The position numbers and the translations under genes were made by a program. 44,694 nucleotides of DNA from the IMG/VR virus record IMGVR_UViG_638341196_000008. One strand, written 5' to 3'. Shown here in pieces: positions 2,432-44,694 of the stretch; position 1 is the first letter of the stretch; every line of letters starts with the position of its first letter. The notes beneath the pieces are model-generated. The model was not told where the DNA came from. It ran no database searches and saw only the letters and a list, made by a program, of their open reading frames with translations. The stretch is from a virus (lineage: Duplodnaviria > Heunggongvirae > Uroviricota > Caudoviricetes).

Positions 2432-3325
2432 CTATTTCCAGTTACAAGCAGCTTGAAGCGGTTTTAGCGCGTTTGACAGGCCGTTTAAATTGAAAGTTGC
2501 ACTTACGGGGCTCTCATTATAAGGCGTTATTTTTGTATACATTTTGCTTGAGTTGGCTAGTTTTCGGATGAAATCAATGTCATTACCTTTATAAAAAACA
2601 GCCTTTGTATCTGTAGATACTAGCCAGTTTCGCTCAACTGCTTTCTGTTTATCAAGGCGATAAAGCATGCTGGTTTGTTCAAGGCCTAAATATACATCCC
2701 AACTAAGAAATACTTCGGTTTTCTTTTCTCGGCAAGCTATAAACAGAGTAGGAGTAACCGCTTCTCCAAATGGAGTTCTGATATAATCATCACTTTCTAA
2801 CGATAGAATTACATTTTTCGAATCATCAATTGGCGATGTAGTAATGGATGTGTGCCATTTTCCTACATCTGTGGCTTTCTCTAATTTTGATTCAGCTTGA
2901 ACGGCTTTATCCTGTGGGAATAGTTTATCGTAGCAGTTTAGTCTGGCTTCTTTATCATTTTCTGCACGACATTTAGATATCTCAGAAAAATTTGGTTGCT
3001 GAGCCTCTGTTGTTACTGGCTTTTCCGTTTTAGATTTTGAGTTTACAGATGGAGTAAATGTTGGAGAAAAGAAACGATCATAACAAGATAAACGTCTATC
3101 ATCATCTTTCTCATCAGGGCATTGATCTCTGCTTTCGAATTTTTCAGCAACTTTCGTTCGAGTCGGTTGTATTGACTTATCGTAACAAGAAAGTCTGTCT
3201 TTATTATTTTCTATTGCTCGGCACTGGAGTACTGCATTGAAGTTCTTATGTTCAGTTGCTGCGTGAACAGGCAGTACACTAATTGATATAAATGATGCAC
3301 CTATAGAAAAAATTATATTTTTCAT
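2432..3325 (-). CDS. Secreted protein with three RL[S/N]CYD[K/R] repeats and a C-terminal domain; function unknown (possibly T6SS-associated VasI-like, uncertain)
   Basis: N-terminal signal peptide (MKNIIFSIGASFISISVLPVHA); repeats RLSCYDK, RLSCYDRFF, RLNCYDKLF; AT-rich codon usage. Confidence 0.6.
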   Translation of the reverse strand: MKNIIFSIGASFISISVLPVHAATEHKNFNAVLQCRAIENNKDRLSCYDKSIQPTRTKVAEKFESRDQCPDEKDDDRRLSCYDRFFSPTFTPSVNSKSKTEKPVTTEAQQPNFSEISKCRAENDKEARLNCYDKLFPQDKAVQAESKLEKATDVGKWHTSITTSPIDDSKNVILSLESDDYIRTPFGEAVTPTLFIACREKKTEVFLSWDVYLGLEQTSMLYRLDKQKAVERNWLVSTDTKAVFYKGNDIDFIRKLANSSKMYTKITPYNESPVSATFNLNGLSNALKPLQAACNWK

Positions 3326-3329
3326 TTTA

Positions 3330-3662
3330 TTACCCCTTTGGTTTAGTAAGAAATACTAAAATTCCGATAATGATATCGCCAATAACCCATAAGCTTCCAA
3401 TGGTAATTAAACCTAAGCCTGTACCAATAACTGCACCGGCTTTTTCGGCATCGGATGTGGCATTATTTATTATTTCACTAGTGCCTCCTAGTCCAACTAA
3501 AAGCGTATAGGTCATAAAAATATTAAATAATATAAAAACCCACTTAATGATCCGTCCAAAAAATGAACGCTTAAGTTTTTGTAGTTGTTTACCACAAGCA
3601 GGGCAATACAATGCTGAATCGCTTACCTCTTTCTGGCATTCAGGACATTTGATTAATGCCAT
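3330..3662 (-). CDS. Zinc-ribbon membrane protein (CPxC...CPxC followed by two hydrophobic helices), unknown function
   Basis: CPECQ...CPACG motif then TM segments; 4-nt gap to downstream ORF (operon); strong SD AAAGGAGG upstream. Confidence 0.6.
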   Translation of the reverse strand: MALIKCPECQKEVSDSALYCPACGKQLQKLKRSFFGRIIKWVFILFNIFMTYTLLVGLGGTSEIINNATSDAEKAGAVIGTGLGLITIGSLWVIGDIIIGILVFLTKPKG

Positions 3663-3699
3663 GTAATCCGCCTCCTTTGGATTAATACGAGTTGATATT

Positions 3700-3755
3700 T
3701 GTTACAAAACATTTTGATTTTATCAGATTTTTTTTATTGATAAGTGTCAATTGAT
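3700..3755 (-). promoter_or_regulatory. Putative promoter of the islet operon (TTGACA ... TGaTAAAAT extended -10 on minus strand)
   Basis: Hexamers read on the reverse complement upstream of the 3330..3662 ORF; -35/-10 spacing is longer than optimal. Confidence 0.3.
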
Positions 3756-3923
3756 TAGCTGGTATAGAGTGAGGCATATAGAAGGGCTGAGCTGCGTCAG
3801 TATGTGATGCAAAAATCCCACAGTTTCATGGAATTTTTGCATTTAGAGCTGTGAGATAGGGTGCCTTATCGACCTTACCCTGGCAACCGATTGACGGGGG
3901 ATTGCTCCCCCGTCGCGGTTTCC

Positions 3924-4064
3924 TTACTGCTTACACTGTAAGAACGCCGCAAACTCCGCTCCCCAGAAGCTCATCCGTATTTCACACAGCGAACCGTGTA
4001 GCATCCAGATGATGAGGATTACCGTCACGCAGAACGTGATGGCCGTAAGCGATTTTTGCGACAT
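3924..4064 (-). CDS. Hok/Gef-family type I toxin-like small membrane protein, 46 aa (MSQKSLTAITFCVTVILIIWMLHGSLCEIRMSFWGAEFAAFLQCKQ)
   Basis: Hand-translated (below the 60-aa ORF track cutoff); TM helix followed by conserved SLCEIR and E(F)AAFL motif as in HokA/Hok; SD AAGGAG 8 nt upstream. Confidence 0.6.
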   Translation of the reverse strand: MSQKSLTAITFCVTVILIIWMLHGSLCEIRMSFWGAEFAAFLQCKQ

Positions 4065-4255
4065 AGCGCTTGCTCCTTTGTTGGAGAGGCGCTAACCTAT
4101 CACTTGCTTAAGGTAGATATGTTAGGGCCTCGGTTAAACAAAAATGTTTTCCGGGGCCTTTCCACATCTGGCCTTCGGGTATTCCCTCCGACCATCAGCC
4201 GAAAGGCACCCGCGCGTAATCTATCGCTTTTTTGTTACTCCGGCAATTCTGCCTG

Positions 4256-4516
4256 TTAATTCTGAGGTAAAGGCAAACTCATCTGATTGTTTCCCCTGTG
4301 TGAAGCTGGCAGTTCATGCCACGGGATACCTTCTGAAGAGTGAACGCCGGAGGCATGTTTCGATGTGAATTTATGGAAAGCTTCCAGTGTTGAGAAGCAT
4401 ACGCCGCATTCCAAGTTGTTACACTGGTAATACTTTTGCCGCACGGTGTTTGAATCATTTTCCGGACGACTGGTGCGGATACGGGCAGATGCGCCACAAA
4501 GCGGACAACGGAACAT
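4256..4516 (-). CDS. ogr: Ogr-like late transcription activator (C4 zinc finger)
   Basis: MFRCPLCG...C..C motif and similarity to P2 Ogr; sits next to D as in P2. Confidence 0.8.
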   Translation of the reverse strand: MFRCPLCGASARIRTSRPENDSNTVRQKYYQCNNLECGVCFSTLEAFHKFTSKHASGVHSSEGIPWHELPASHRGNNQMSLPLPQN

Positions 4517-4558
4517 AGCGACCTCCCTTAACGTGGTGCTGCCGCTATTCTAAGTTGC

Positions 4559-5668
4559 TCACTCTGTTTCCGCTATCCATTCCGGGATTTTTGCCTCAAG
4601 CTCAAGCTGCGTGGTAAAGCCGCTGTTATCAATGGTGTGCTCGACTTTCGCAATAATCCAGTCCTGATTATCAATCTCGCTTTTAAATCCTGTTACCGTG
4701 CCATGCATTTCGGGGTAGAGTTCTGCGCGTCCACGTGCCAGTGTGATGGAGAACGCTGCGGCTCCGCGTTGTAGCTGCTGCCACTTTGCCGCCGCTGCGC
4801 GTCTTGCTGCCTGCTCGTTCTGATAAGTCTTGCGTAACACAAACACATTGCCTTCCGCGCCTTCCATATAATCACCTTCACGGCTGCTGCTTTTCTCCTT
4901 TTTCGGTTTGGGTGGTTTGCGGCGTTTCACGCTGACTTTTTTCTTTTTCCCATAGTTAAGATCAAGCCAGTAGGCGCGCACCCCCGTATACGCCTCGCGG
5001 TCAGCAATGCGGAACTGATGGCGATCGCCGCTGCTGCGTGTGATGGCGAACGATGGCAACGGCTGGCCCTGTGCGTTCACGCCACCACCTGGCATGATGA
5101 ATAACAGATTGCCGCTTTTTACCGTGGTGATTGCGCCCAGCATTTCCGCCATGCGCGTAAGGAAGGACATGTCGCTTTCTTCGGTCTGGTCGGCGTGGTC
5201 GATTTCGATCTCCATCAGCATTTCGCTGATTTGCGGTTTCAGACCGTACCGATGAGCGATGGCAGATACCACGCGCTCAACGGTCACATCATGCCAGGAT
5301 ACTTCATGTTTAACGTTAAATTCATCCCGAAAATCTGCGCTTCTGGCTGAAACAGTCAGCCTGTCCGGCGGTCATTCGTGAGCGATTTCATCAACAATGT
5401 AAGTGCCTTTTTCTGTCAGCGGTTCTCCTTTCCAGCCAATGAGAACCGTCAGGCGCGCGCCCCGTGGCGGTAGCTGCAACTGACCATCCGCATCATCCAG
5501 CGTGATGGTGAGCTGGTCCGCCTCAAATCCCCGGTTGTCGGTCAGTGACAGGCTCATCAGGCGCTCTGCCACGCCTGACAGCGCTTTACCCTCCGCGAGA
5601 ATATCAAAATCCGGCATTTTCACGGGGTCTGTGCCCTGACTGAGCAATTGCATGGTGGTGTCGGTCAT
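4559..5668 (-). pseudogene. D: P2 gpD-like tail protein interrupted by an in-frame TGA at 5372-5374
   Basis: ORFs 5372..5800 and 4559..5287 are in the same frame (start offset 87 nt); hand translation across the gap reads ...DEIAHE*PPDRLTVSARSADFRDEF...; SD GGGAGGG before ATG at 5668. Confidence 0.7.
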
Positions 5669-28465: not shown

Positions 28466-28780
28466 TCACTCTCCTTTGATACCAATGTTTACAGTCTGGC
28501 AAGCTTCTCTGAGCACCCAGTCAACAGCGTCTTTCCATGCTCCGGTTTCAGTTGGCGGATTCTCACGCTTTACCAGTTCATAGAAACGTACTGCTCTAAC
28601 CAGTCCATCTGACGGTTTTGCCTGTAGTGCAGCCTGAGCTATACGGTATGCCTGGAGCATACGGGCGTCGTTGATATCCATTCCGAACGGAATTTCTGAT
28701 GATCGTGATTCTGCATCTTCAAGCCTGGCAATTTCTTTACGTAAAAAGTATTTCAACTCTTGTTTTTGTTTTCTGTTCAT
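28466..28780 (-). CDS. Hypothetical protein, 104 aa
   Basis: ATGA overlap with upstream gene; no recognisable motif. Confidence 0.5.
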
Positions 28781-29109
28781 GTGTTTTTTCCCTTTTTGTC
28801 TGCCACTTCTCTCCTGATAATTTCATTGCACAAATCCACGCACTCATTGCAGATGTAAACAGACGGTCCAGCAATCACCTTTGTGACTTCGTACTGGGAT
28901 TTATTGCAGAAGCTGCAATAAATCGTTTCCTCGCCTGAAGCCCATGTTTTGCTGGTTTTGCCAGACATCAGTTGTTTGAGGTCTTTTTCACGACGAAGAA
29001 CTATCTGGCCACATTCAGCTATTTTTTGGATGTTGACATTTTCTTCTTTCGCCAGCGCTTCCATCCGCTCAATCAGTCGCTGCGCTTTTTCTCTGTCAAT
29101 GTGTTGCAT
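28777..29109 (-). CDS. Small protein with C-terminal ClpX-type C4 zinc-binding domain and N-terminal coiled-coil region
   Basis: [39 protein letters not shown] is near-identical in pattern to the ClpX N-terminal zinc-binding domain (LYCSFCGKSQ...VYICDECVDLCNDII); SD AAGGGGG. Confidence 0.7.
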
Positions 29110-29488: not shown

Positions 29489-30448
29489 TTACTCCTTGTC
29501 CATTGCGTACAGCCCATTAACCAGAGCAAACTGTGGCACCCCGTCCGCGATGAAAGTCGCATTAACTCCGCAGGCTTCGCGGATAGCGGGTGCCACAATC
29601 TCCGCTCCTCCACCTACAACCATCACCCGCCCGTAACCCGAAAAACCCGCCAGCGCGCGGATCACGCGTTGTTTCAGTGTTTCTTCCTTTTCACGAATAA
29701 CCGCCATCAGGCTGGCGTAATGTGCGTCATTGTGGATGTGCTGGCGCAGCCAGGCTTCATCATGGCGATGTTCGATAATGGTATTGGCGATGTGGTGACT
29801 GGTACGCATACCGTTAGTGGCCATCACCGACAGTACGGCATCGGCCATCAGGGAAACGCCTACGTGTGGATCGCAAAATACCTGGCTGATACCTGCCAAC
29901 TGCCCCTGAACCTTTGCCACATCCAGCGTGGTTCCGCCCAAATCCACAATCAGCAGGGATTCAAACGGACTCATGTCAGCCAGTGTTTTAAAGCCAGTTG
30001 GAATGGATTCAGGCATAACCCGTACGTTACGGATAGTGAATGCTTCGCCGTTCTGGTACTCCACCGGGCGCATAACGTTCGCTTTTTTGCGGTTGATGTT
30101 GGCCATGTCCGGCTGTGCGTTTGTGTCGAAATACTCGCTCAGTGGCAGGGTGACAACCACATCCACCTCCTGTGGCGTGATGCCTGATTTGACCAGCGCG
30201 TGATGAATGGCAATGACATTCACATCGCTGTACTGGTATTGCGTGTCGGTCGTCTGGACAAAGCGATCGCTGACCGGATCAAAACCATAGCGCACGCCAT
30301 CAAGCATGTAGTTCGCGGGCTGCGTGCCACCGAACGGCGCAGACCATTCCGACTTGAAGCTGTTCGGGCTGATGGCGTTGCGGCGTTCGCCGTTCTCAGT
30401 CCATGCCAGCTTGATGTTGGTGGAGCCGTCGTCGATACAAATTTTCAT
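29489..30448 (-). CDS. parM: ParM/StbA-like actin-family partition ATPase
   Basis: 319 aa; strong similarity to R1 ParM throughout (IDDGSTNIKL, YSDVNVIAIHHAL, MPESIP, DLGGTTLD, GGGAE). Confidence 0.8.
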   Translation of the reverse strand: MKICIDDGSTNIKLAWTENGERRNAISPNSFKSEWSAPFGGTQPANYMLDGVRYGFDPVSDRFVQTTDTQYQYSDVNVIAIHHALVKSGITPQEVDVVVTLPLSEYFDTNAQPDMANINRKKANVMRPVEYQNGEAFTIRNVRVMPESIPTGFKTLADMSPFESLLIVDLGGTTLDVAKVQGQLAGISQVFCDPHVGVSLMADAVLSVMATNGMRTSHHIANTIIEHRHDEAWLRQHIHNDAHYASLMAVIREKEETLKQRVIRALAGFSGYGRVMVVGGGAEIVAPAIREACGVNATFIADGVPQFALVNGLYAMDKE

Positions 30449-30591
30449 GTCGCTTTTCCTTATGTTGATTAATTAATCGTTTACGGGATTCTGAAATCCC
30501 GTTTTTTCCGTAAGCGCCCCATCAGCGACGTCTTGTGAAAATTGTCCTGTCTGGCAACAATCGCGCCCATCTATATTGATGGACACGAACG

Positions 30592-31077
30592 ATGAATTCC
30601 CAGACAACAAAAGATATTCCCTGCTTCCGTTCTTATTTGCCTGATGCCCTGCGTTTAAGATTTGAAGATAAACTGACCATCCGGGCCATCGCTCAGCGTC
30701 TGGGTCTCAGTCATTCCACAATACATACGCTTTTTCAGCGATTTCTTGCATCCGGTATCGCATGGCCATTGCCCGATTCAGTTTCATTCGCTCAACTTGA
30801 CGCCATCCTTTATGCCAACAGAAAGAAGGAATTAACAGAGCCTCAAATCAGAGAAGGCTCATGGCGAAAAGAACGGCGAACCAGCTATAGCCGTGAATTT
30901 AAGGTCCGTCTGGCTAAGCAGGCGTTACAGCCTGGGGCTGTTGTTGCCCGGATCGCCAGAGAACACGATATCAATGATAACCTGCTGTTTAAATGGAAAA
31001 GCCAGTACGAGGACGGCTTACTGAGCGATGATGACATACAGGCATACAGGAATGCATGCCTGTCCCGGTGGCACTGA
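30592..31077 (+). CDS. IS66-family accessory HTH protein (transposase_8-like)
   Basis: 161 aa with ...YSREFKVRLAKQALQPGAVVARIAREHDINDNLLFKWKSQY HTH region. Confidence 0.65.
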   Translation: MNSQTTKDIPCFRSYLPDALRLRFEDKLTIRAIAQRLGLSHSTIHTLFQRFLASGIAWPLPDSVSFAQLDAILYANRKKELTEPQIREGSWRKERRTSYSREFKVRLAKQALQPGAVVARIAREHDINDNLLFKWKSQYEDGLLSDDDIQAYRNACLSRWH

Positions 31078-31274
31078 CTGATACGCCGGAGCCGACCAGA
31101 CCAGTTACAAATCCCTTCTGGCGTAACAAGCATGATGAGCGCCCTGAGGGGGCTCCCGGAAACGTCCCACGGTGCGAGCTGCATCTTAAATCAGGTGTGG
31201 TAAAACTGTTTGACCCTCTCACTCCGGAACTGTTACGGGCGCTAATCCGCGAAATGAAAGGGGGTATCCGATGA
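31056..31274 (+). CDS. IS66-family small ORF (TnpA-like), ATGA-overlapping tnpB
   Basis: 72-aa ORF whose stop overlaps the TnpB start. Confidence 0.45.
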   Translation: MPVPVALTDTPEPTRPVTNPFWRNKHDERPEGAPGNVPRCELHLKSGVVKLFDPLTPELLRALIREMKGGIR

Positions 31275-31618
31275 TAACGCTGCCGACCGGTACCAGAATC
31301 TGGATCATCGCTGGCATCACAGATATGCGTTGTGGCTTCAATGGCCTGGCTTCGAAGGTGCAGAACACGCTGAAAGATGACCCGTTCTCCGGGCATATCT
31401 TCGTCTTCCGGGGCCGCAGTGGCAAAATGGTGAAAATACTGTGGGCCGATCGTGACGGGTTATGCCTGTTCGCCAAACGCCTGGAACGGGGCCGCTTCGT
31501 CTGGCCGGTGACCCGGGAAGGGAAAGTGCACCTGACGCCAGCTCAGTTATCCATGCTACTGGAGGGGATCGCGTGGCAACATCCCACACGGACAGAACGG
31601 CCTGGCATCCGGATATAA
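31271..31618 (+). CDS. tnpB: IS66-family TnpB
   Basis: 115 aa, MITLPTGTRIWIIAGITDMR... typical of IS66 Orf2. Confidence 0.8.
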   Translation: MITLPTGTRIWIIAGITDMRCGFNGLASKVQNTLKDDPFSGHIFVFRGRSGKMVKILWADRDGLCLFAKRLERGRFVWPVTREGKVHLTPAQLSMLLEGIAWQHPTRTERPGIRI

Positions 31619-31637
31619 CCCGTGATAAAACAAGGGA

Positions 31638-33195
31638 ATGAACAATGAACTCCCCGATGATATTGAGCTGCTTAAAGCCATGTTGCGTAAGCAACAGAGT
31701 CGGCTTCGACAGTATGCCTGTCAGGTCGCGGGCTATGAGCAGGAAATTGAACGGCTGAAAGCGCAACTCGACAGGTTGCGTCGTATGTTGTTCGGCCAGA
31801 GTTCAGAGAAAAAGCGTCATAAGCTTGAAAATCAGATCCGACAGGCAGAAAAACGACTGTCGGAACTGGAAAACCGGCTGAACACAGCCAGAAATCTTCT
31901 GGAAGATGCATCGTCAGTCACAGATTCACCTGACACCAGTCCCCCGTCAGAAAACCCGATCGCCAGTAAGCCTGAATCCCCGGGAGACACATCGCCTTCT
32001 GCCTGCTGAAACCAGTTGCCCGGCCTGTGGAGGTGTTCTGAAAGAAATGGGGGAAACAATCTCAGAGCAACTGGATATCATTAATACCGCCTTTAAAGTT
32101 ATCGAAACCATACGTCCCAAACTGGCCTGTAGCCGGTGTGATGTCATCGTTCAGGCACCACTTCCCCCTAAACCGATCGAACGCGGTTATGCCAGTGCAG
32201 GGTTACTTGCACGGATCCTGGTCAGCAAATATATGGAACATATCCCTTTATATCGCCAGTCAGAAATATACGCGCGACAGGGCGTGGAGCTGAGCCGTAA
32301 TACCATGGTGCGCTGGGTATCAGAAATGGCAGACAAACTCCGTCCTCTGTATATAGCGCTGAATGACTATGTTCTGGAGGCAGGAAAGGTGCACGCAGAT
32401 GACACTCCGGTGAAAGTACTGGCCCCGGGGAACGGAAAGACGAAAACGGGTCGTCTGTGGGTATACGTCAGGGATGATCGTAATGCGGGTTCATCCCTGC
32501 CGGCAGCCGTCTGGTTCGCGTATTCGGCAGATCGCAAAGGAGAACATCCGCAGCTCCACCTGGCAAAGTATCAGGGCGTACTGCAGGCTGATGCCTATGC
32601 AGGTTATAACGTACTGTACGAAACGGGCCGGGTGAAGGAAGCCGGGTGCCTGGCCCACGCCCGCCGAAAAATCCATGACGAGGATGTGCGCCGTCCGACA
32701 GAAATGACTCAGGAAGCGCTCAGACGGATAGCAGAGTTATACGACATAGAAGCGGAGATACGTGGCAGTCCGGCAGAGGAACGGCTTGCAGTCAGAAAAG
32801 CCAGAAGCGTCCAGTTGATGCAGTCGTTGTACGACTGGATACAGTTGCAGAGGAAAACGCTGTCGAAACATGCGGAGATGGCGAAGGCGTTCGACTATAT
32901 CCTGAATCACTGGAATGCGCTGAACGAGTTCTGTCGTGACGGCTGGGTGGAAATAGACAACAACATCGGTGAAAACGCGTTACGATCGGTGGCGGTTGGA
33001 AGAAAAAATTATCTCTTTTTCGGCTCAGACAAGGGAGGAGAAAGTGCGGCGATCATCTACAGTCTGCTGGTCACCTGCAAACAGAACGAAGTGGAGCCGG
33101 AGGACTGGTTGCGCGAAGTGATCGAGAAGCTCAATGACTGGCCGTCGAACCAAGTGCATGAACTGCTGCCCTGGAACTTCTCGTCTGTAAAATAA
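31638..33195 (+). pseudogene. tnpC: IS66-family transposase TnpC, split by a frame change between 31906 and 32009
   Basis: N-terminal leucine-zipper ORF (31638..32009) and main ORF (31906..33195, containing CPACGG zinc finger) are in different frames; same in copy B. Confidence 0.7.
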
Positions 33196-33227
33196 TCCTT
33201 ACGCTACGTACTTCTCGGGGCGCTTAC

Positions 33228-33235
33228 ATTTCTCC
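33228..33235. repeat. 8-bp target-site duplication half (ATTTCTCC) at copy A right end
   Basis: Reverse complement of GGAGAAAT at 43653..43660, flanking copy B outer end. Confidence 0.7.
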
Positions 33236-33276: not shown

Positions 33277-33615
33277 CTAACCAGTTTTCTGGCCTCCGCG
33301 GGATAATTTTTGGATTGTTTCGGTTGAAACGCGATCTCCCTCCGAATTGCAGGAACCATCAAGAGAGAGAGCCGGAGAAATTTGCCCGACCTCCGGCATC
33401 GTTTCATCTGTTGATAACCAATAAGCATACTTCTTAAATTTAGGGTGTTTCGTAACCTTAAGTAAGGCACCCTCTGTTACTTGCTTCCCCCTCACCTCAT
33501 AGTTAGTTACCGTCCCATAAGGCAGCCCAACACAATCCGCAAACTCCTGGCGGGTCATACCTTCTGCTTCACGAATCAGGCGAAATTTTTCACCCATGCT
33601 TGACAAAGATGCCAT
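33277..33615 (-). CDS. C: P2 C-type immunity repressor
   Basis: ...GLPYGTVTNYE...KHPKFKKYAYWLSTDETMPEVGQISPAL...GGQKTG parallels P2 C; start approximate. Confidence 0.75.
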   Translation of the reverse strand: MASLSSMGEKFRLIREAEGMTRQEFADCVGLPYGTVTNYEVRGKQVTEGALLKVTKHPKFKKYAYWLSTDETMPEVGQISPALSLDGSCNSEGDRVSTETIQKLSRGGQKTG

Positions 33616-33728
33616 ATCGGGCATGTCCTCCATCGCAACATGCCACATCGGGCACAAACATAAAAACACTCAAATAAGCCGATATAAGCCATTTTGAGCC
33701 ATTCGAACGAATTAGGGAGATTACCACA
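33616..33728. promoter_or_regulatory. C/cox divergent promoter-operator region (Pc/Pe analogue)
   Basis: Position between divergent C and cox; AAGCC/AGCC direct repeats at about 10-bp spacing may be operator half-sites. Confidence 0.4.
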
Positions 33729-34016
33729 ATGAGCGAATCAGAGTTTGGGGGGGGCATTCAGGTAGCACCATATCCACTTGAAGCGGTGCCATATCAACTA
33801 TTCGCCAAGATGATCGGCCGCAAGGAATCCACAGTCAGAACCATGATTGACGCAGCAAAGCTACCGACAATTGACTTTGTGAAACCAGGTTCAGTAAAGA
33901 CGCGTGCATCAGAAAACTGGGTATATCTGCCAACATTTAACGAAGGCATGCGCAAAGCGTTTTTTGAGCAACCGAAAGAACGCCGCGACGCATGGTTGTT
34001 GTGGCTGGGACTTTAG
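33729..34016 (+). CDS. cox: Cox-like excisionase/repressor
   Basis: 95 aa; ...PYQLFAKMIG...WVYLP..N.G...LWLGL parallels P2 Cox. Confidence 0.75.
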   Translation: MSESEFGGGIQVAPYPLEAVPYQLFAKMIGRKESTVRTMIDAAKLPTIDFVKPGSVKTRASENWVYLPTFNEGMRKAFFEQPKERRDAWLLWLGL

Positions 34017-34229: not shown

Positions 34230-34334
34230 GAAACCTGACAACCTAGACTGGCCCCCTGAATCTCCAGACAACCAGTATCACTTAAATAAGTGATAGTCTT
34301 AATACTAGTTTTTAGACTAGTCATTGGAGTACAG

Positions 34335-34700
34335 ATGATTGATGTCTTAGGGCCGGAGAAACGCAGACGGCGTACCACACAGGAAAAGATCGCAATTGTT
34401 CAGCAGAGCTTTGAACCGGGGATGACGGTCTCCCTCGTTGCCCGGCAACATGGTGTAGCAGCCAGCCAGTTATTTCTCTGGCGTAAGCAATACCAGGAAG
34501 GAAGTCTTACTGCTGTGGCCGCCGGAGAACAGGTTGTTCCTGCCTCTGAACTTGCTGCCGCCATGAAGCAGATTAAAGAACTCCAGCGCCTGCTCGGCAA
34601 GAAAACGATGGAAAATGAACTCCTCAAAGAAGCCGTTGAATATGGACGGGCAAAAAAGTGGATAGCGCACGCGCCCTTATTGCCCGGGGATGGAGAGTAA
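34335..34700 (+). CDS. insC: IS2 InsC (OrfA)
   Basis: [47 protein letters not shown]... matches IS2 InsC. Confidence 0.9.
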
Positions 34701-35563
34701 GCTTAGTCAGCCGTTGTCTCCGGGTGTCGCGTGCGCAGTTGCACGTCATTCTCAGACGAACCGATGACTGGATGGATGGCCGCCGCAGTCGTCACACTGA
34801 TGATACGGATGTGCTTCTCCGTATACACCATGTTATCGGAGAGCTGCCCACGTATGGTTATCGTCGGGTATGGGTGCTGCTTCGCAGACAGGCAGAACTT
34901 GATGGTATGCCTGCGAACAATGCCAAACGTGTTTACCGGATCATGCGCCAGAATGCGCTGTTGCTTGAGCGAAAACCTGCTGTACCGCCATCGAAACGGG
35001 CACATACAGGCAGAGTGGCCGTGAAAGAAAGCAATCAGCGATGGTGCTCTGACGGGTTCGAGTTCTGCTGTGATAACGGAGAGAGACTGCGTGTCACGTT
35101 CGCGCTGGACTGCTGTGATCGTGAGGCACTGCACTGGGCGGTGACTACCGGCGGCTTCAACAGTGAAACAGTACAGGACGTCATGCTGGGAGCGGTGGAA
35201 CGCCGCTTCGGCAACGATCTTCCGTCGTCTCCAGTGGAGTGGCTGACGGATAATGGTTCATGCTACCGGGCTAATGAAACACGCCAGTTCGCCCGGATGT
35301 TGGGACTTGAACCGAAGAACACGGCGGTGCGGAGTCCGGAGAGTAACGGAATAGCAGAGAGCTTCGTGAAAACGATAAAGCGTGACTACATCAGTATCAT
35401 GCCCAAACCAGACGGGTTAACGGCAGCAAAGAACCTTGCAGAGGCGTTCGAGCATTATAACGAATGGCATCCGCATAGTGCGCTGGGTTATCGCTCGCCA
35501 CGGGAATATCTGCGGCAGCGGGCTTGTAATGGGTTAAGTGATAACAGATGTCTGGAAATATAG
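34658..35563 (+). CDS. insD: IS2 InsD transposase (OrfB)
   Basis: 301-aa DDE transposase characteristic of IS2. Confidence 0.9.
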
Positions 35564-37649: not shown

Positions 37650-37771
37650 GAAACCAGAACATGCACACACAAAAAAACCGCTTGCCATGCCGCAATCAGT
37701 CAGGTTACATTTCCGCTGCACCTCACAAAACGGGTGCCGGGTTTCGCAGCCTGCTGACTACACAAGCGCAC

Positions 37772-37792
37772 AACCGCGCCAGCGGTTTTTTT
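37772..37792 (+). terminator. Possible weak terminator (short stem accgc/gcggt followed by T7)
   Basis: caaccgcgccagcggttttttt read directly; short stem. Confidence 0.3.
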
Positions 37793-37971
37793 GTGCGTAC
37801 TGTATTGCTACGTTTTTTTCGCGTCAGAATTATGGCGGGGCGTACGGGGCCGACTTCGGTCGGGCCGGGTTCTTGTGTAGCCGGTACTGCGAACCTCGTA
37901 CGTCTCGCCACCCACAGTTTCGCAGCTCTGGATGGTGAGTTTTCACAACTTACTACACAAGGGGCCACACC

Positions 37972-38202
37972 ATGGCAAACCGCAAACCACACCGCGCTAT
38001 CGCGGAGCGTCGTCACATCCAGACTGAAATCAACCGCAGACTTTCCCGCGCATCACGCGTCGCGCAAATCATGCACATCAATATGTTGCATGAGCGCAGC
38101 CACGCACTATCAAACATTTATTCCGCCTCTGTTTTCAGCTATCTGGCGGATGATCTGCACGAGCTTCAACAGCTCATCCAGCAGCAAAACAAACTCCATT
38201 AA
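37972..38202 (+). CDS. Hypothetical early-region protein, 76 aa
   Basis: ORF. Confidence 0.4.
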   Translation: MANRKPHRAIAERRHIQTEINRRLSRASRVAQIMHINMLHERSHALSNIYSASVFSYLADDLHELQQLIQQQNKLH

Positions 38203-38274
38203 TTCCTGTTCCGGGCCTTTCCTGCACCTTGCGGCGGGAGGCCTTCGCACATCTGTAACAAGAGGATTGCCGCA

Positions 38275-38640
38275 ATGATTCTCGCCAACGACTTTCTTGA
38301 ATACCTGCTCAACACAGAGCGTGATCTTGCCGCTCGCGTGCGTGATCGTTATGACATGTACCTGAAATCCCTGCCTGTACCGCAGCTCGCTGACGGAAAG
38401 ATTGTTATTGATGGTCGCTACATGATTGACAGCCACGAGGGAAATTACAGGCTTTACCGCATTGAAGGTGGCACCCCGTCCGTTATTGGCATTTACCAGC
38501 GCCCATCCTCTGCAATCGTCGATGTGATTGCCGACAGCATCCGCATCACACATCGCCATGCCGACACAGAAGACACCGTGCTGGAAATTCAGCGGCTGGC
38601 TACAGTCTGCCGCGACACCCTGAATGGCATGACGAAGTAA
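38275..38640 (+). CDS. Hypothetical early-region protein, 121 aa
   Basis: ORF immediately upstream of A. Confidence 0.45.
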   Translation: MILANDFLEYLLNTERDLAARVRDRYDMYLKSLPVPQLADGKIVIDGRYMIDSHEGNYRLYRIEGGTPSVIGIYQRPSSAIVDVIADSIRITHRHADTEDTVLEIQRLATVCRDTLNGMTK

Positions 38641-38646
38641 ATCACT

Positions 38647-40938
38647 ATGACGGCAGAGTACATCAGGGACTGGCAACAACCGCGCCACGCAGTGGGGCGT
38701 GAAGGAACGGGGATCCCCGCTCCTGAATCCGTGCTTTCCTCCTGGCTGGATGCCTACCGGGTAGAGAACGAGCGCCGCCAGGAAATGGCTAATGCGGCGT
38801 TCTCCGCCACGCCGCTGGGCAACCTGATTAATAAAAGCCTGGACGCACAGGAAAAACAGGACAAAACCATCACACTGGCAGGAGACGCCAGAAAACAGGC
38901 ACGCGGCGCGGTGGATGAAGCCATGGCCTCGCTGCACCTGCTGCCGTCCTATCTGCGCGATCCGCTTATTCGCCACCTCTCCTTCCTGCGCAAAAAACAG
39001 GAAGCCGATCGCCGGAAAGGCAAAAAGAGCTGGCAGGCGGAACGCTATGCACGCGGAACCCTGCGCAAAATATTCGAACGTCTGGATCGCACTGACGGAC
39101 ACTGGCTGACACCGGGTTATCGCTCCCTTGCCGGACGCGAACGCCTGGACGATTTGCTTTACCTGCCGCAGCTCAACAAACACCAGATACAGACGCTGGC
39201 CACCATGACGGCGGCGATGTTCAGCAGCACCTTCGAAAAACTCTGCGATGGCTTTGGCGCGACCGATGGCGAACTGACCATGGATGTAACGCTGAAGGCG
39301 TATCAGATGCTGGCCCGCATGGCGTTACACCTGCACGCCATGCCTCCACATTATGACGCACTGACAACAGACAAAGACCGGAGGAACGAACCGGACACGG
39401 AGCTGCTGCCGGGCGCAATCCTTCGCCTGACCTGTGCGGAATGGTGGAAACGCAAACTGTGGCTGTTACGTTGCGAGTGGAGAGAAGAACAACTCCGCGC
39501 CGCCTGTCTGGTTTCCAGAAAAACATCACCCTATCTGAGCCAGGACGCGTTAAGCGAGTTTCGCGCACAGCGCGAGAAAACACGCGATTTCCTGAAAAGT
39601 TTCATGCTGGAAAACGAAGACGGGTTCACGATTGATCTCGAGACAGTGTATTACGCGGGAGTAAGTAACCCGGTTCACCGTAAGGCAGAAATGATGGCCA
39701 CCATGAAGGGGCTGGAACTTCTGGCCGAAGCCCGTGGCGACAAAGCGGTGTTTCTGACTGTCACCTGCCCGTCAAAATACCACGCCACAACAGAGAACAG
39801 TCATCCGAATCCCAAATGGAACGGGGCCACCATGCGCGACTCCAGCGATTACCTGGTTAACACGTTTTTTGCAGCGGTCCGCAAGAAACTGAACCGCGAC
39901 GGCCTGCGCTGGTATGGCATCCGCACGGTGGAGCCTCACCATGACGGCACCGTGCACTGGCATATGATGGTCTTTGCTCATCCGGAAGAAATCGACACCA
40001 TTGTGTCCCACACCCGCGATATTGCCATTCAGGAAGATCGTCACGAGCTGGGTGATGATATTACCCCACGCTTTAAGGCGGAGTACGTCGACGGCTCAAA
40101 AGGCACGCCAACCAGCTACATCGCCACCTACATCGGAAAGAACCTGGACAGCCGCGCCGTGGATGGCATCGACCCGAAAACGGGCAAGCCACGCGTTGAC
40201 CACGAAACAGGTAAATCAATGGCCGAGAGCGTGGAGCGCGCCATCGGCTGGGCGCGCCTTCACCGGGTCCGCCAGTTCCAGTTCTTTGGCATCCCCTCCC
40301 GTCAGGTGTGGCGTGAACTCCGCCGCCTTGCCAGCCAGATAGCACGCAACCCAGAAGGCCCGCAACGGCTGAAGGATGACGCAATGGATGCGGTTCTTGC
40401 TGCCGCTGATGCCGGGTGTTTTGCCACCTACATTGAAAAACAGGGTGGCGTACTTGTTCCGCGCAAGGACTACCTGATTCGCACAGCCTACGACCTCGCA
40501 GATGAGCTGAACGATTACGGCGAACAGAGTGTACAGATTTACGGGATCTGGTCGCCATTCATCGGGGAATCCTCCCGTGTGTGCACGCATCCGGATAACT
40601 GGAAGCTGGTAAGACGTAAACCGGAAGCGGAGGACAGCACCCGCGAAAATGGTTTTGACCTTCAGGGCGGCCCTGCCGCCCCTTGGACTCGTGGCAATAA
40701 CTGTCCCCGTGTACAGGAAACGGACAACAACGGGACAGAACAGCCGAAAGAACGGCCAGCACCGTGGCCGCAGCTCCCTGACGGCGTTGAAGTGAACGAA
40801 TGGATGCGCTCACTGAAACGGCACGAACGCCGGGCGCTGATGCGTTCGCTTCGTGACAAACAGGCAAAAAACAGCAGTGATGAAATGCAGAGCTGGACAC
40901 AGAGCCGCAAACAGCAGCGGCCTTTGCCTGATAAGTAA
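38647..40938 (+). CDS. A: Rolling-circle replication initiator gpA-like; last codon and stop supplied by the IS66 end
   Basis: 763 aa; HUH-type motif HWHMMVF and active-site tyrosines YIATYIGK; stop TAA lies inside GTAAGCG of the IS terminus. Confidence 0.8.
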   Translation: MTAEYIRDWQQPRHAVGREGTGIPAPESVLSSWLDAYRVENERRQEMANAAFSATPLGNLINKSLDAQEKQDKTITLAGDARKQARGAVDEAMASLHLLPSYLRDPLIRHLSFLRKKQEADRRKGKKSWQAERYARGTLRKIFERLDRTDGHWLTPGYRSLAGRERLDDLLYLPQLNKHQIQTLATMTAAMFSSTFEKLCDGFGATDGELTMDVTLKAYQMLARMALHLHAMPPHYDALTTDKDRRNEPDTELLPGAILRLTCAEWWKRKLWLLRCEWREEQLRAACLVSRKTSPYLSQDALSEFRAQREKTRDFLKSFMLENEDGFTIDLETVYYAGVSNPVHRKAEMMATMKGLELLAEARGDKAVFLTVTCPSKYHATTENSHPNPKWNGATMRDSSDYLVNTFFAAVRKKLNRDGLRWYGIRTVEPHHDGTVHWHMMVFAHPEEIDTIVSHTRDIAIQEDRHELGDDITPRFKAEYVDGSKGTPTSYIATYIGKNLDSRAVDGIDPKTGKPRVDHETGKSMAESVERAIGWARLHRVRQFQFFGIPSRQVWRELRRLASQIARNPEGPQRLKDDAMDAVLAAADAGCFATYIEKQGGVLVPRKDYLIRTAYDLADELNDYGEQSVQIYGIWSPFIGESSRVCTHPDNWKLVRRKPEAEDSTRENGFDLQGGPAAPWTRGNNCPRVQETDNNGTEQPKERPAPWPQLPDGVEVNEWMRSLKRHERRALMRSLRDKQAKNSSDEMQSWTQSRKQQRPLPDK

Positions 40939-43652
40939 GCGCCCCGAGAAGTACGTAGCGTAAGGATTATTTTACAGACGAGAAGTTCCAGGGCAGCAGT
41001 TCATGCACTTGGTTCGACGGCCAGTCATTGAGCTTCTCGATCACTTCGCGCAACCAGTCCTCCGGCTCCACTTCGTTCTGTTTGCAGGTGACCAGCAGAC
41101 TGTAGATGATCGCCGCACTTTCTCCTCCCTTGTCTGAGCCGAAAAAGAGATAATTTTTTCTTCCAACCGCCACCGATCGTAACGCGTTTTCACCGATGTT
41201 GTTGTCTATTTCCACCCAGCCGTCACGACAGAACTCGTTCAGCGCATTCCAGTGATTCAGGATATAGTCGAACGCCTTCGCCATCTCCGCATGTTTCGAC
41301 AGCGTTTTCCTCTGCAACTGTATCCAGTCGTACAACGACTGCATCAACTGGACGCTTCTGGCTTTTCTGACTGCAAGCCGTTCCTCTGCCGGACTGCCAC
41401 GTATCTCCGCTTCTATGTCGTATAACTCTGCTATCCGTCTGAGCGCTTCCTGAGTCATTTCTGTCGGACGGCGCACATCCTCGTCATGGATTTTTCGGCG
41501 GGCGTGGGCCAGGCACCCGGCTTCCTTCACCCGGCCCGTTTCGTACAGTACGTTATAACCTGCATAGGCATCAGCCTGCAGTACGCCCTGATACTTTGCC
41601 AGGTGGAGCTGCGGATGTTCTCCTTTGCGATCTGCCGAATACGCGAACCAGACGGCTGCCGGCAGGGATGAACCCGCATTACGATCATCCCTGACGTATA
41701 CCCACAGACGACCCGTTTTCGTCTTTCCGTTCCCCGGGGCCAGTACTTTCACCGGAGTGTCATCTGCGTGCACCTTTCCTGCCTCCAGAACATAGTCATT
41801 CAGCGCTATATACAGAGGACGGAGTTTGTCTGCCATTTCTGATACCCAGCGCACCATGGTATTACGGCTCAGCTCCACGCCCTGTCGCGCGTATATTTCT
41901 GACTGGCGATATAAAGGGATATGTTCCATATATTTGCTGACCAGGATCCGTGCAAGTAACCCTGCACTGGCATAACCGCGTTCGATCGGTTTAGGGGGAA
42001 GTGGTGCCTGAACGATGACATCACACCGGCTACAGGCCAGTTTGGGACGTATGGTTTCGATAACTTTAAAGGCGGTATTAATGATATCCAGTTGCTCTGA
42101 GATTGTTTCCCCCATTTCTTTCAGAACACCTCCACAGGCCGGGCAACTGGTTTCAGCAGGCAGAAGGCGATGTGTCTCCCGGGGATTCAGGCTTACTGGC
42201 GATCGGGTTTTCTGACGGGGGACTGGTGTCAGGTGAATCTGTGACTGACGATGCATCTTCCAGAAGATTTCTGGCTGTGTTCAGCCGGTTTTCCAGTTCC
42301 GACAGTCGTTTTTCTGCCTGTCGGATCTGATTTTCAAGCTTATGACGCTTTTTCTCTGAACTCTGGCCGAACAACATACGACGCAACCTGTCGAGTTGCG
42401 CTTTCAGCCGTTCAATTTCCTGCTCATAGCCCGCGACCTGACAGGCATACTGTCGAAGCCGACTCTGTTGCTTACGCAACATGGCTTTAAGCAGCTCAAT
42501 ATCATCGGGGAGTTCATTGTTCATTCCCTTGTTTTATCACGGGTTATATCCGGATGCCAGGCCGTTCTGTCCGTGTGGGATGTTGCCACGCGATCCCCTC
42601 CAGTAGCATGGATAACTGAGCTGGCGTCAGGTGCACTTTCCCTTCCCGGGTCACCGGCCAGACGAAGCGGCCCCGTTCCAGGCGTTTGGCGAACAGGCAT
42701 AACCCGTCACGATCGGCCCACAGTATTTTCACCATTTTGCCACTGCGGCCCCGGAAGACGAAGATATGCCCGGAGAACGGGTCATCTTTCAGCGTGTTCT
42801 GCACCTTCGAAGCCAGGCCATTGAAGCCACAACGCATATCTGTGATGCCAGCGATGATCCAGATTCTGGTACCGGTCGGCAGCGTTATCATCGGATACCC
42901 CCTTTCATTTCGCGGATTAGCGCCCGTAACAGTTCCGGAGTGAGAGGGTCAAACAGTTTTACCACACCTGATTTAAGATGCAGCTCGCACCGTGGGACGT
43001 TTCCGGGAGCCCCCTCAGGGCGCTCATCATGCTTGTTACGCCAGAAGGGATTTGTAACTGGTCTGGTCGGCTCCGGCGTATCAGTCAGTGCCACCGGGAC
43101 AGGCATGCATTCCTGTATGCCTGTATGTCATCATCGCTCAGTAAGCCGTCCTCGTACTGGCTTTTCCATTTAAACAGCAGGTTATCATTGATATCGTGTT
43201 CTCTGGCGATCCGGGCAACAACAGCCCCAGGCTGTAACGCCTGCTTAGCCAGACGGACCTTAAATTCACGGCTATAGCTGGTTCGCCGTTCTTTTCGCCA
43301 TGAGCCTTCTCTGATTTGAGGCTCTGTTAATTCCTTCTTTCTGTTGGCATAAAGGATGGCGTCAAGTTGAGCGAATGAAACTGAATCGGGCAATGGCCAT
43401 GCGATACCGGATGCAAGAAATCGCTGAAAAAGCGTATGTATTGTGGAATGACTGAGACCCAGACGCTGAGCGATGGCCCGGATGGTCAGTTTATCTTCAA
43501 ATCTTAAACGCAGGGCATCAGGCAAATAAGAACGGAAGCAGGGAATATCTTTTGTTGTCTGGGAATTCATCGTTCGTGTCCATCAATATAGATGGGCGCG
43601 ATTGTTGCCAGACAGGACAATTTTCACAAGACGTCGCTGATGGGGCGCTTAC
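40935..43652 (-). mobile_element. IS66-family insertion sequence, copy B, identical to copy A and inverted
   Basis: All ORFs mirror copy A with a constant coordinate sum (74162); ORFs 43085..43570, 42888..43106, 42544..42891, 42153..42524 and 40967..42256. Confidence 0.85.
40967..42524 (-). pseudogene. tnpC: IS66-family TnpC of copy B (same frame change)
   Basis: Mirror of 31638..33195. Confidence 0.7.
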
Positions 43653-43660
43653 GGAGAAAT
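43653..43660. repeat. 8-bp target-site duplication half (GGAGAAAT) at copy B outer end
   Basis: Reverse complement of 33228..33235. Confidence 0.7.
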
Positions 43661-43689
43661 TGTAGAGCGGTTCATTGGAGGGCTTCGTA

Positions 43690-44694
43690 ATGTCGATTAA
43701 GAAGCTCGAAGATGGTCGTTATTTGCTGGACATCAGGCCGAACGGACGCAAGGGAAAGCGCGTGCGTAAGGTATTTGACAAAAAATCGGTAGCGGTGGCC
43801 ACTGAACGCTACATCATGGCGAACGCTGAAAAGCGGGAATATATACAGGGCTACCGTGATCGTCGAACGCTAAATGATTTGCTTGAGTTGTGGTGGATGT
43901 ATCACGGCCAGCACAGGCGTAAGGCGGAAGAAGACCGAAAACAACTGCGCAACATAATCAATGAGCTTGGCGCTGATATGCAGGCTGTGGATCTTGATAA
44001 GCTGAAAATTATCGCGTGGCGTTCTCAAAAGATAGCTGAAGGATTGAAACCGTCATCTGCTAACAGGTACATGAATCGGTTATCCGGAATGTTTACCGTG
44101 CTGAAAAAAATAGGTCTTTGGGATGCAGAACATCCAGTAAGGGGAATTTCTATTCTTTATGTATCTCCACGAGAAATGGCGTTCCTGTCACAGAAGGAAG
44201 TGGCGCTATTGCTCGATACACTGGAGGGCGACTATTGGCGTGTTGCGCTTTTGTGTTTAAGCACAGGGGCGCGCTGGAGTGAAGCTTGTAAGCTTCGTGG
44301 TGAACAGATAGTTCATAACCGTGTAACGTTTCTTGAAACCAAAAATGGCCGGAAGAGAACAGTGCCAATTTCGCAGGCAGTTTGTGAGGCGATCAAAACC
44401 AGAGAAACAGGCGGCTTGTTTGAGGTGAAGTACCGGGAATTCTGCCTGGCGCTGAAAAGAGTTAAGCCCGATTTACCAAAAGGCCAGGCTGCACATGTGC
44501 TGCGGCATACGTTCGCCAGCCATTTTGTGATGAACGGAGGAAACATTATTGCGCTTCAGAAGATTCTTGGTCACGCAACCATTCAGCAAACAATGGCATA
44601 TGCGCATTTTGCACCGGATTACCTGCAGGATGCGGTGGCCCTTAATCCGCTGAAAGGTGGCGTAAGTGTCCACGCAGTGTCCACTGGGGATTAA
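43690..44694 (+). CDS. int: P2-type tyrosine integrase
   Basis: MSIKKLEDGRY...; conserved R..H..R..Y catalytic region (LRHTFASH...MAYAHF) closely parallels P2 Int; stop at window end. Confidence 0.85.
   Translation: MSIKKLEDGRYLLDIRPNGRKGKRVRKVFDKKSVAVATERYIMANAEKREYIQGYRDRRTLNDLLELWWMYHGQHRRKAEEDRKQLRNIINELGADMQAVDLDKLKIIAWRSQKIAEGLKPSSANRYMNRLSGMFTVLKKIGLWDAEHPVRGISILYVSPREMAFLSQKEVALLLDTLEGDYWRVALLCLSTGARWSEACKLRGEQIVHNRVTFLETKNGRKRTVPISQAVCEAIKTRETGGLFEVKYREFCLALKRVKPDLPKGQAAHVLRHTFASHFVMNGGNIIALQKILGHATIQQTMAYAHFAPDYLQDAVALNPLKGGVSVHAVSTGD

Follow-up and report, generated by a model that had tools for sequence, protein, structure and literature searches.

A probable hok/sok-type toxin-antitoxin cassette without a mok frame, carried downstream of ogr in a P88-like prophage

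The window, which is the whole stretch of 44,694 nucleotides analyzed here, holds a P2-family prophage in which a small toxin gene lies between the late-gene activator gene ogr and the left att core. The genes at this end of the prophage, and the att core, are:

2330-2349, no strand: left att core of 20 bp, a direct repeat with a 19/20 copy at 44665-44684
2432-3325, minus strand: VasI/TagO-like cargo gene, 297 aa (Pfam VasI 89 bits, below the TIGR03360 cutoff)
3330-3662, minus strand: cargo gene for a Zn-ribbon membrane protein, 110 aa (Pfam Zn_Ribbon_1; hydrophobic C-terminal half)
3924-4064, minus strand: hok coding sequence, with an ATG start, 46 aa and a TAA stop; profile matches in Pfam, PHROG and NCBIfam
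4256-4516, minus strand: ogr, late-gene activator (Pfam Ogr_Delta 52.4 bits, E 5e-14), directly upstream of hok on the same strand

The peptide encoded at 3924-4064 reads MSQKSLTAITFCVTVILIIWMLHGSLCEIRMSFWGAEFAAFLQCKQ, and its ATG is preceded by the Shine-Dalgarno (SD) sequence AAGGAG, which ends 8 nt 5' of the start codon. The initial annotation had singled out this 46-aa ORF for its Hok/Gef hallmarks and its good SD, and both observations hold. A search with Hok-family profiles, which had been proposed as the check, gave a Pfam match above the gathering score (HOK_GEF, PF01848; 30.1 bits, E 3.7e-7, gathering score 22), with Hok residues 7-44 aligned onto positions 5-42 of the 42 in the profile. 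PHROG 251 (‘MokW-like host killing’) also matches, at E 2.5e-23. In NCBIfam the matches to HokA and to the Hok family (subfamily-type) model are weak and both fall below the cutoff; HokA is the best-scoring named model, and its equivalog NF007290 gives 35.8 bits against a cutoff of 89, so that the peptide is not assigned to HokA by this model. A PDB sequence search with Hok returned no match.

By hydropathy the 46-aa peptide has the form expected of a Hok toxin, about 50 aa long with one transmembrane helix at the N-terminus; the Kyte-Doolittle peak (17-residue window) is 2.58 at residues 6-22. Seven positions are each conserved in over 80% of Hok peptides (n = 1264), namely M1, C16, T18, L30, C31, E32 and E41 in logo numbering (bioRxiv 10.1101/2025.08.07.668861). 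All seven are found here with identical spacing, as M1, C12, T14, L26, C27, E28 and E37, and C44 of this Hok corresponds to logo position 48. In an alignment of Hok relatives most hallmark residues are invariant, the length of 46 codons is kept in 10 of the 11 relatives of hok, and dN/dS against diverged relatives lies at 0.26-0.45, with dS up to about 1.2. As judged from three profile libraries, the ORF at 3924-4064 is a genuine Hok-family membrane toxin gene. Toxicity on overexpression, the other check proposed for the peptide, is reported for a near-identical protein. The preprint tested 45 Hok peptides, including 72_1621 and 72_1589 from cluster 72, and only 19_179, 60_1482 and 69_1540 were non-toxic (bioRxiv 10.1101/2025.08.07.668861). 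Peptide 72_1621, which is reported toxic, is identical to the window Hok at 45 of the 46 residues, the sole difference being V15A.

The gene had been placed at the ogr-proximal end of the prophage. It does adjoin ogr, which PGAP also annotates in a locus 99.5% identical over 3700-4560, but hok lies about 1.5 kb inside the prophage, with the VasI/TagO-like and Zn-ribbon genes between it and the att core. The right att copy (44665-44684) is located inside the 3' end of int (43675-44694, Pfam). The contrast drawn with P2 stands: in P2, a terminator and attP are all that lies between ogr and int, within about 100 bp, whereas hok is carried here as cargo next to ogr. The trio of hok, VasI/TagO-like and Zn-ribbon cargo genes is shared with the sequenced phages Shae_phiSM (Citrobacter rodentium) and PhiR44_2. 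Next to the left att core, on its prophage side, 2360-2403 form an inverted repeat whose two 20-bp arms match perfectly around a 4-nt loop; this is probably a bidirectional terminator insulating the cargo operon from flk.

Other parts of the prophage carry several features of their own. Tail gene D (4559-5668, minus strand) has an in-frame stop at codon 99 (5372-5374, in the context IAHE-stop-PPD), while E. coli C7 has an intact D of 369 aa that shows zero indels relative to the window D; from this stop codon, the prophage is probably tail-defective. Two copies of an IS66-family element, each 2730 bp, 100% identical and inverted, are found at 30503-33232 and 40930-43659. The 7.7 kb between them contains C (33277-33669, minus strand), cox (33729-34016, plus strand) and gpA (38647-40938, plus strand), in an orientation opposite to that expected beside int (43675-44694, plus strand); this points to an inversion of the early region mediated by IS66. 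A third insertion, an IS3-family element (rve integrase core, HTH_21), is also in the early region at 34290-35563 (plus strand). Rfam matches above the gathering score include isrK (64 bits) followed by C4 antisense RNA (83 bits) at 37718-37915 (plus strand), adjoining an Ash-family ORF at 37661-38278, and the tail region holds an IS009 RNA at 12220-12418 (minus strand; Rfam 191 bits). Within a tail-fibre-like ORF of 708 aa (13690-15816, minus strand), a 132-bp unit occurs three times in tandem at 14795-15288, the repeats being 79-82% identical over 230-nt registers. At 29489-30448 (minus strand) the prophage encodes an actin-like segregation protein of the ParM/StbA type (Pfam 272 and 230 bits), and the small protein encoded at 28777-29109 (minus strand) has a C4 zinc finger of the ClpX type. 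For an integrated P2-like phage, partition cargo of this plasmid-like kind is surprising.

Around the coding sequence, the following regulatory and structural RNA features are predicted:

3807-3842, minus strand: terminal AU-rich hairpin and U run, the probable hok terminator in the window allele (sequence reading; present in the fold)
3811-4211, minus strand: predicted full-length hok mRNA of about 400 nt, with +1 at G4211 (start of the Rfam sok model)
3859-3875, minus strand: fbi-like element AGGUCGAUAAGGCACCC, pairing with mRNA nt 1-15
3891-3915, minus strand: 3'UTR GC hairpin (scan and family alignment)
4054-4211, minus strand: hok leader, 147 nt (Rfam RF01794 ‘sok’)
4064-4095 (+117 to +148), minus strand: SD-sequestering hairpin, in which GGAG at 4073-4076 pairs with CUCC
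4070-4098, plus strand: predicted Sok promoter, -35 TTGCTC (4070-4075), 17-nt spacer, -10 TAACCT (4093-4098)
4100-4195, minus strand: leader ORF of 31 codons, AUG +17 to UGA +110, not a mok equivalent and not conserved among relatives
4105-4162, plus strand: predicted Sok antisense RNA of about 58 nt, with a 19-nt single-stranded 5' tail, a GC hairpin and then UUU; its ends are putative
4197-4211, minus strand: tac-like 5' element GGGUGCCUUUCGGCU, pairing with 3859-3875 in the full-length fold
4218-4246, minus strand: predicted hok promoter, -35 TTGCCG (4241-4246), 17-nt spacer, -10 TAGATT (4218-4223)

The region upstream of hok had been expected to contain mok/sok-like regulatory elements, and for the sok part there is support in a sub-gathering match. 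Rfam RF01794 matches over its full model length at 47.6 bits (E 4.8e-9), below the gathering score of 59, and the strand matched is that of hok sense. Since the RF01794 consensus begins like the 5' ends of hok mRNAs, the match marks the hok leader, with +1 at G4211. The predicted hok promoter lies upstream of this position, its -35 box beginning 10 nt past the ogr stop codon. Both boxes are kept in aligned relatives, and they fit the consensus at 8 of 12 positions, which explains why the promoter was missed by a consensus scan. On the opposite strand, the -35 box of the predicted Sok promoter overlaps the complement of the hok SD, and the complement of this promoter, AGGTTAGCGCCTC...GAGCAA, is invariant over 11 relatives that have a mean identity of 72%. 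Both promoters are predicted and weak by consensus. When 3650-4350 were scanned for consensus promoters and terminators, no promoter came up, and the sole terminator-type find was the GC hairpin, read on the plus strand. As the scan missed both promoters as well as the Sok and hok terminators, these features rest on homology and conservation.

The predicted Sok RNA folds at -20.6 kcal/mol with a free 5' tail, and the Sok region (4104-4172) has a structure z of -4.55. It would be fully complementary to hok leader nt +50 to +107. A free 5' tail followed by a terminator-like hairpin is the Sok architecture, which the modelled RNA reproduces.

The predicted full-length hok mRNA has a minimum free energy of -170.6 kcal/mol (z -8.3 versus shuffles). 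In this in silico fold, the 5' end is closed by tac/fbi pairing, with a probability of being unpaired of 0.03 for nt 1-15, and when the 3' end is removed in silico, the 5' end refolds as a local hairpin. The fbi-like element includes GGCACCC at 3859-3865, and the tac-like element is invariant among relatives. Neither the full-length fold nor the 3'-truncated one leaves the hok SD free (mean probability of being unpaired 0.20). A GC hairpin downstream of hok had been suggested at about 3889-3911 as a possible 3' structure of the mRNA. The hairpin does exist, at 3891-3915 or, as read by the scan, 3892-3915, and it is a real conserved helix, 99% paired in relatives with compensatory changes in 4 of 9 pairs, but it is internal to the 3'UTR and not the mRNA 3' end, since the fbi-like element and the terminal hairpin lie further downstream. 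Likewise, the range 3924-4255 first assigned to the locus holds the coding sequence, leader and promoter, but omits the 3'UTR at 3807-3923 with fbi and the terminal hairpin; the whole cassette is wider, at about 3807-4246, or about 440 bp. At the position of the 3807-3842 hairpin, relatives carry another, canonical terminator, because the cassette junction falls at about 3849-3859.

Conservation of the structure was assessed in an alignment of 11 sequences from P2-like prophages, lambdoid/Stx phages, an IncI1 plasmid, E. coli chromosomal sites and two Salmonella genomes. A scan of genome contigs gave only 6 loci, two of which are probably E. coli contigs in other assemblies. In the alignment 88.5% of cells were paired, compared to 38-46% when the partners were slid, although this percentage is inflated, since the structure tested on the family had been taken from the window sequence. 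There were 24 covarying pairs, against 6-16 in the slid controls. The individual helices differ in this respect. Helix 1 (tac/fbi) is 93% paired in the 11 relatives with a compensatory change in just one pair, so covariation adds little for tac/fbi, and helix 6 (the SD hairpin) is 95% paired with zero compensatory changes. RNAalifold on the family alignment preferred a 5' hairpin of the tac/ucb type over tac/fbi, and tac/fbi was therefore checked with an explicit structure. The tac/ucb-type consensus fold fits an alternative active conformer, and it would not count as independent proof of the fbi pairing.

The mok part of the expectation was not borne out, as all three leader frames are closed between +102 and +120. 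The stops are UAA at +102, UGA at +110 and UAG at +113 in one frame, and UAG at +118. After these stops there is no start codon in the leader up to the hok AUG (+148), and there is no mok ORF that reaches the hok SD. The leader ORF from AUG +17 ends 38 nt 5' of the hok AUG. At the site equivalent to the R1 mok start, the window has AUA, and it is UAA +102 that closes the R1-like mok frame. The frame closed by UGA +110 was considered as the R1 mok frame and rejected, since an 8-nt length difference between the Sok -10 box and the hok AUG shifts the frame. In 80 IMG/VR loci whose Hok is 98% identical or more, hok is reached by a leader ORF in 22, where a long frame opening at AUG +17 or +45 runs into hok, and in the other 58 there is no such ORF. 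The count of 22 is close to the chance expectation for an open frame of 20-30 codons. This polymorphism has its source in indels of the Sok-terminator loop and in single-base changes, e.g., UAA to UCA at +102. From these sequences, mok is not a conserved part of this Hok cluster (cluster 72).

The absence of mok bears on translation. In R1, the start codons of mok and hok are at 116-118 and 174-176, translation of mok at least to the hok SD is mandatory for Hok synthesis, and premature mok stops upstream of hok abolish toxicity (PMC9841398). Given the closed frames and the paired SD, the native locus could be translationally silent. Speculatively, the SD hairpin (+117 to +148) could be melted by a ribosome that ends translation at +110 to +120, which would place it at the base of this helix.

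In most other respects the cassette resembles R1 hok/sok (parB), in which the hok mRNA is 398 nt long. The shared traits are a single-helix LCE toxin, tac/fbi closure, an mRNA of about 400 nt and a GC hairpin past the stop codon, and in the prediction made here also a Sok with a free 5' tail and hairpin whose promoter is just upstream of the hok SD. Unlike R1, the window has no mok start (AUA) and no leader ORF to the hok SD, its leader is 147 nt compared to 173 nt, its Hok is 46 aa compared to 52 aa with 39% identity over 31 residues, and its carrier is a prophage and not a plasmid. Identity is higher to K-12 HokA, the closest relative that has a name, at 43%, and includes the MxQK N-terminus, the W at the helix end and AAFLxCK. 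The tac (GGGTGC) and fbi (GCACCC) elements are recognisable in the K-12 hokA locus, which is disrupted by IS150. HokA and the window Hok nevertheless belong to different 60%-identity clusters of the preprint, 93 and 72, respectively.

The hokW-sokW locus of the Stx2 prophage Sp5 is likewise borne by a prophage and belongs to the same PHROG family (PMC8621323). HokW has 51 aa, starts with MKQQKAM, has another leader and is 34% identical to the window Hok over 35 residues. RefSeq phage records use the label ‘MokW-like’ because PHROG 251 is shared. We considered whether the present locus is hokW and rejected this, as the published primers and protein show that HokW is a different 51-aa paralogue (PMC8621323); the label is misleading for the window Hok. 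The protein that is identical to the window Hok is gp52 of phage P88 (YP_009113095.1, ‘hok/gef family protein’). P88 and the window diverge only downstream of about 3849, where P88 has another terminator and other neighbouring cargo.

P88-like phages and 1170 E. coli genomes likewise have hok beside ogr. The 861-bp stretch 3700-4560, comprising the cassette, ogr and the start of D, is at least 80% covered in these 1170 of 5426 complete E. coli genomes, and wherever a PGAP label beside ogr is shown in them it is ‘Hok/Gef family protein’. Ogr is directly upstream of hok in 79 of the 80 IMG/VR loci. The exact Hok protein is found on at least 1000 contigs, and RefSeq WP_000078920.1 (‘Hok/Gef family protein’) is among its closest known counterparts. 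The ORF is absent from the annotation of the Shae_phiSM record, i.e., it is missed by some gene callers. The cassette also travels beyond ogr: about 375 bp (3859-4232) of it recur next to lom in Stx2 phages, and IncI1 and IncF plasmids have them too. In some Stx2 phages, an 83%-identical cassette copy lies by lom and is separate from hokW-sokW (L005 2066-2206; L007 320-460; Stx2/O157 prophages), and phages with two different hok loci raise the question of cross-talk between Sok RNAs. A catalogue of 32,532 hok loci shows a 4-fold enrichment in prophages (2026 preprint, Escalera-Maurer et al., bioRxiv 10.1101/2025.08.07.668861). We found no paper discussing the ogr-adjacent cassette in the literature on hok with P2-like phages, Peduoviridae or P88. 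The gene itself is already known, as a routine and widely annotated Hok/Gef gene.

Taken together, the locus is very probably an intact type I toxin-antitoxin cassette of the hok/sok type, carried as cargo of a P88-like (Xuanwuvirus, P2-family) prophage directly downstream of ogr. Its anatomy was derived in silico, and its function would follow the R1 hok/sok paradigm. A weak promoter would give a hok mRNA of about 400 nt that is locked in a stable, inert fold by tac/fbi pairing. Slow 3' trimming would then take off fbi, allowing the 5' end to refold. The short-lived Sok of about 58 nt would silence the mRNA by binding the leader at +50 to +107, probably via RNase III cleavage. Once the Sok supply stops, the 46-aa Hok would be made, enter the inner membrane and kill or arrest the cell; the peptide has one transmembrane helix and carries the conserved C..T......LCE....E motif.

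What such a cassette would do for the prophage can be read in several ways. Our first choice, held tentatively, is a selfish addiction cassette that would penalise loss of its carrier; this cassette is also borne by plasmids and by several types of phage. The retention of the prophage by hok, as suggested in the initial annotation, would be an effect of this kind. It is less likely that Hok helps lysis, such that at induction Sok vanishes, or read-through from ogr and the late genes enters hok, and Hok damages the inner membrane before holin and endolysin act, making phage release faster or greater. The Sp5 hokW-sokW locus doubled phage release, with HokW appearing about 1 h ahead of endolysin (PMC8621323), but HokW is the other paralogue, with 34% identity, 51 aa and a different leader. 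The arrangement would suit read-through, as hok is on the ogr strand, its -35 is 10 nt past the ogr stop, and the scan gave no terminator-like site between them, whereas P2 has a post-ogr terminator; a 5'-extended transcript would, however, still hold the SD-sequestering hairpin. The cassette is retained in P88, Shae_phiSM and PhiR44_2, which were recovered and sequenced as phage genomes (PMC6456863), yet it is also found on plasmids, where lysis timing is meaningless.

Temperate phages, P2-like ones included, commonly carry accessory or defence cargo genes, and the cassette could in principle serve abortive infection or exclusion, a reading we consider unlikely. A lytic phage that halts host transcription would cause Sok to decay, and Hok would kill the lysogen and protect the clone and its resident prophage. 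R1 hok/sok on a high-copy plasmid cut T4 plating by 42%, in the account cited by PMC8621323, but this effect is small and was seen at high copy number. PADLOC gave no defence model match for Hok or either of the neighbouring cargo proteins, and hok is not enriched near defence systems, going by the preprint's statement on this point (bioRxiv 10.1101/2025.08.07.668861). Slightly less probable still is that the cassette is a silent passenger, transcribed without Hok ever being translated for want of a mok-type leader, and persisting through its linkage to ogr and its mobility. The closure of all three frames upstream of the SD, which 58 of the 80 near-identical loci share, would agree with this, as would the near-chance frequency of open leaders in the other 22 and the loss of toxicity on stopping R1 mok (PMC9841398). 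Against it, 46 codons are kept in 10 of 11 relatives, purifying selection is seen, with dN/dS below 0.5 (0.26-0.45) where dS reaches about 1.2, the hallmark residues do not vary, the mRNA structure covaries and the Sok promoter boxes are invariant, all of which a never-toxic locus could do without. A dead locus is therefore unlikely.

One tentative and rather doubtful proposal is that cluster-72 cassettes, that of the window among them, work without mok, with the sequestered SD opened in some other way, for example by termination at the conserved stop cluster at +102 to +120 or by RNA refolding alone, and with the terminator-less site after ogr coupling Hok to the late programme. If true, the hok/sok switch would have here a variant that needs no mok and is wired to the phage.

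The importance of the locus beyond correct annotation is small, as the enrichment of hok in prophages and the toxicity of the cluster are already reported. Within the P88-like lineage the cassette is a fixed feature, located in an ogr-att interval where P2 has almost nothing. The single point that is not trivial is the absence of mok: an abundant cluster that lacks the mok frame required in R1 offers a handy natural test of how general mok coupling is in hok/sok systems.
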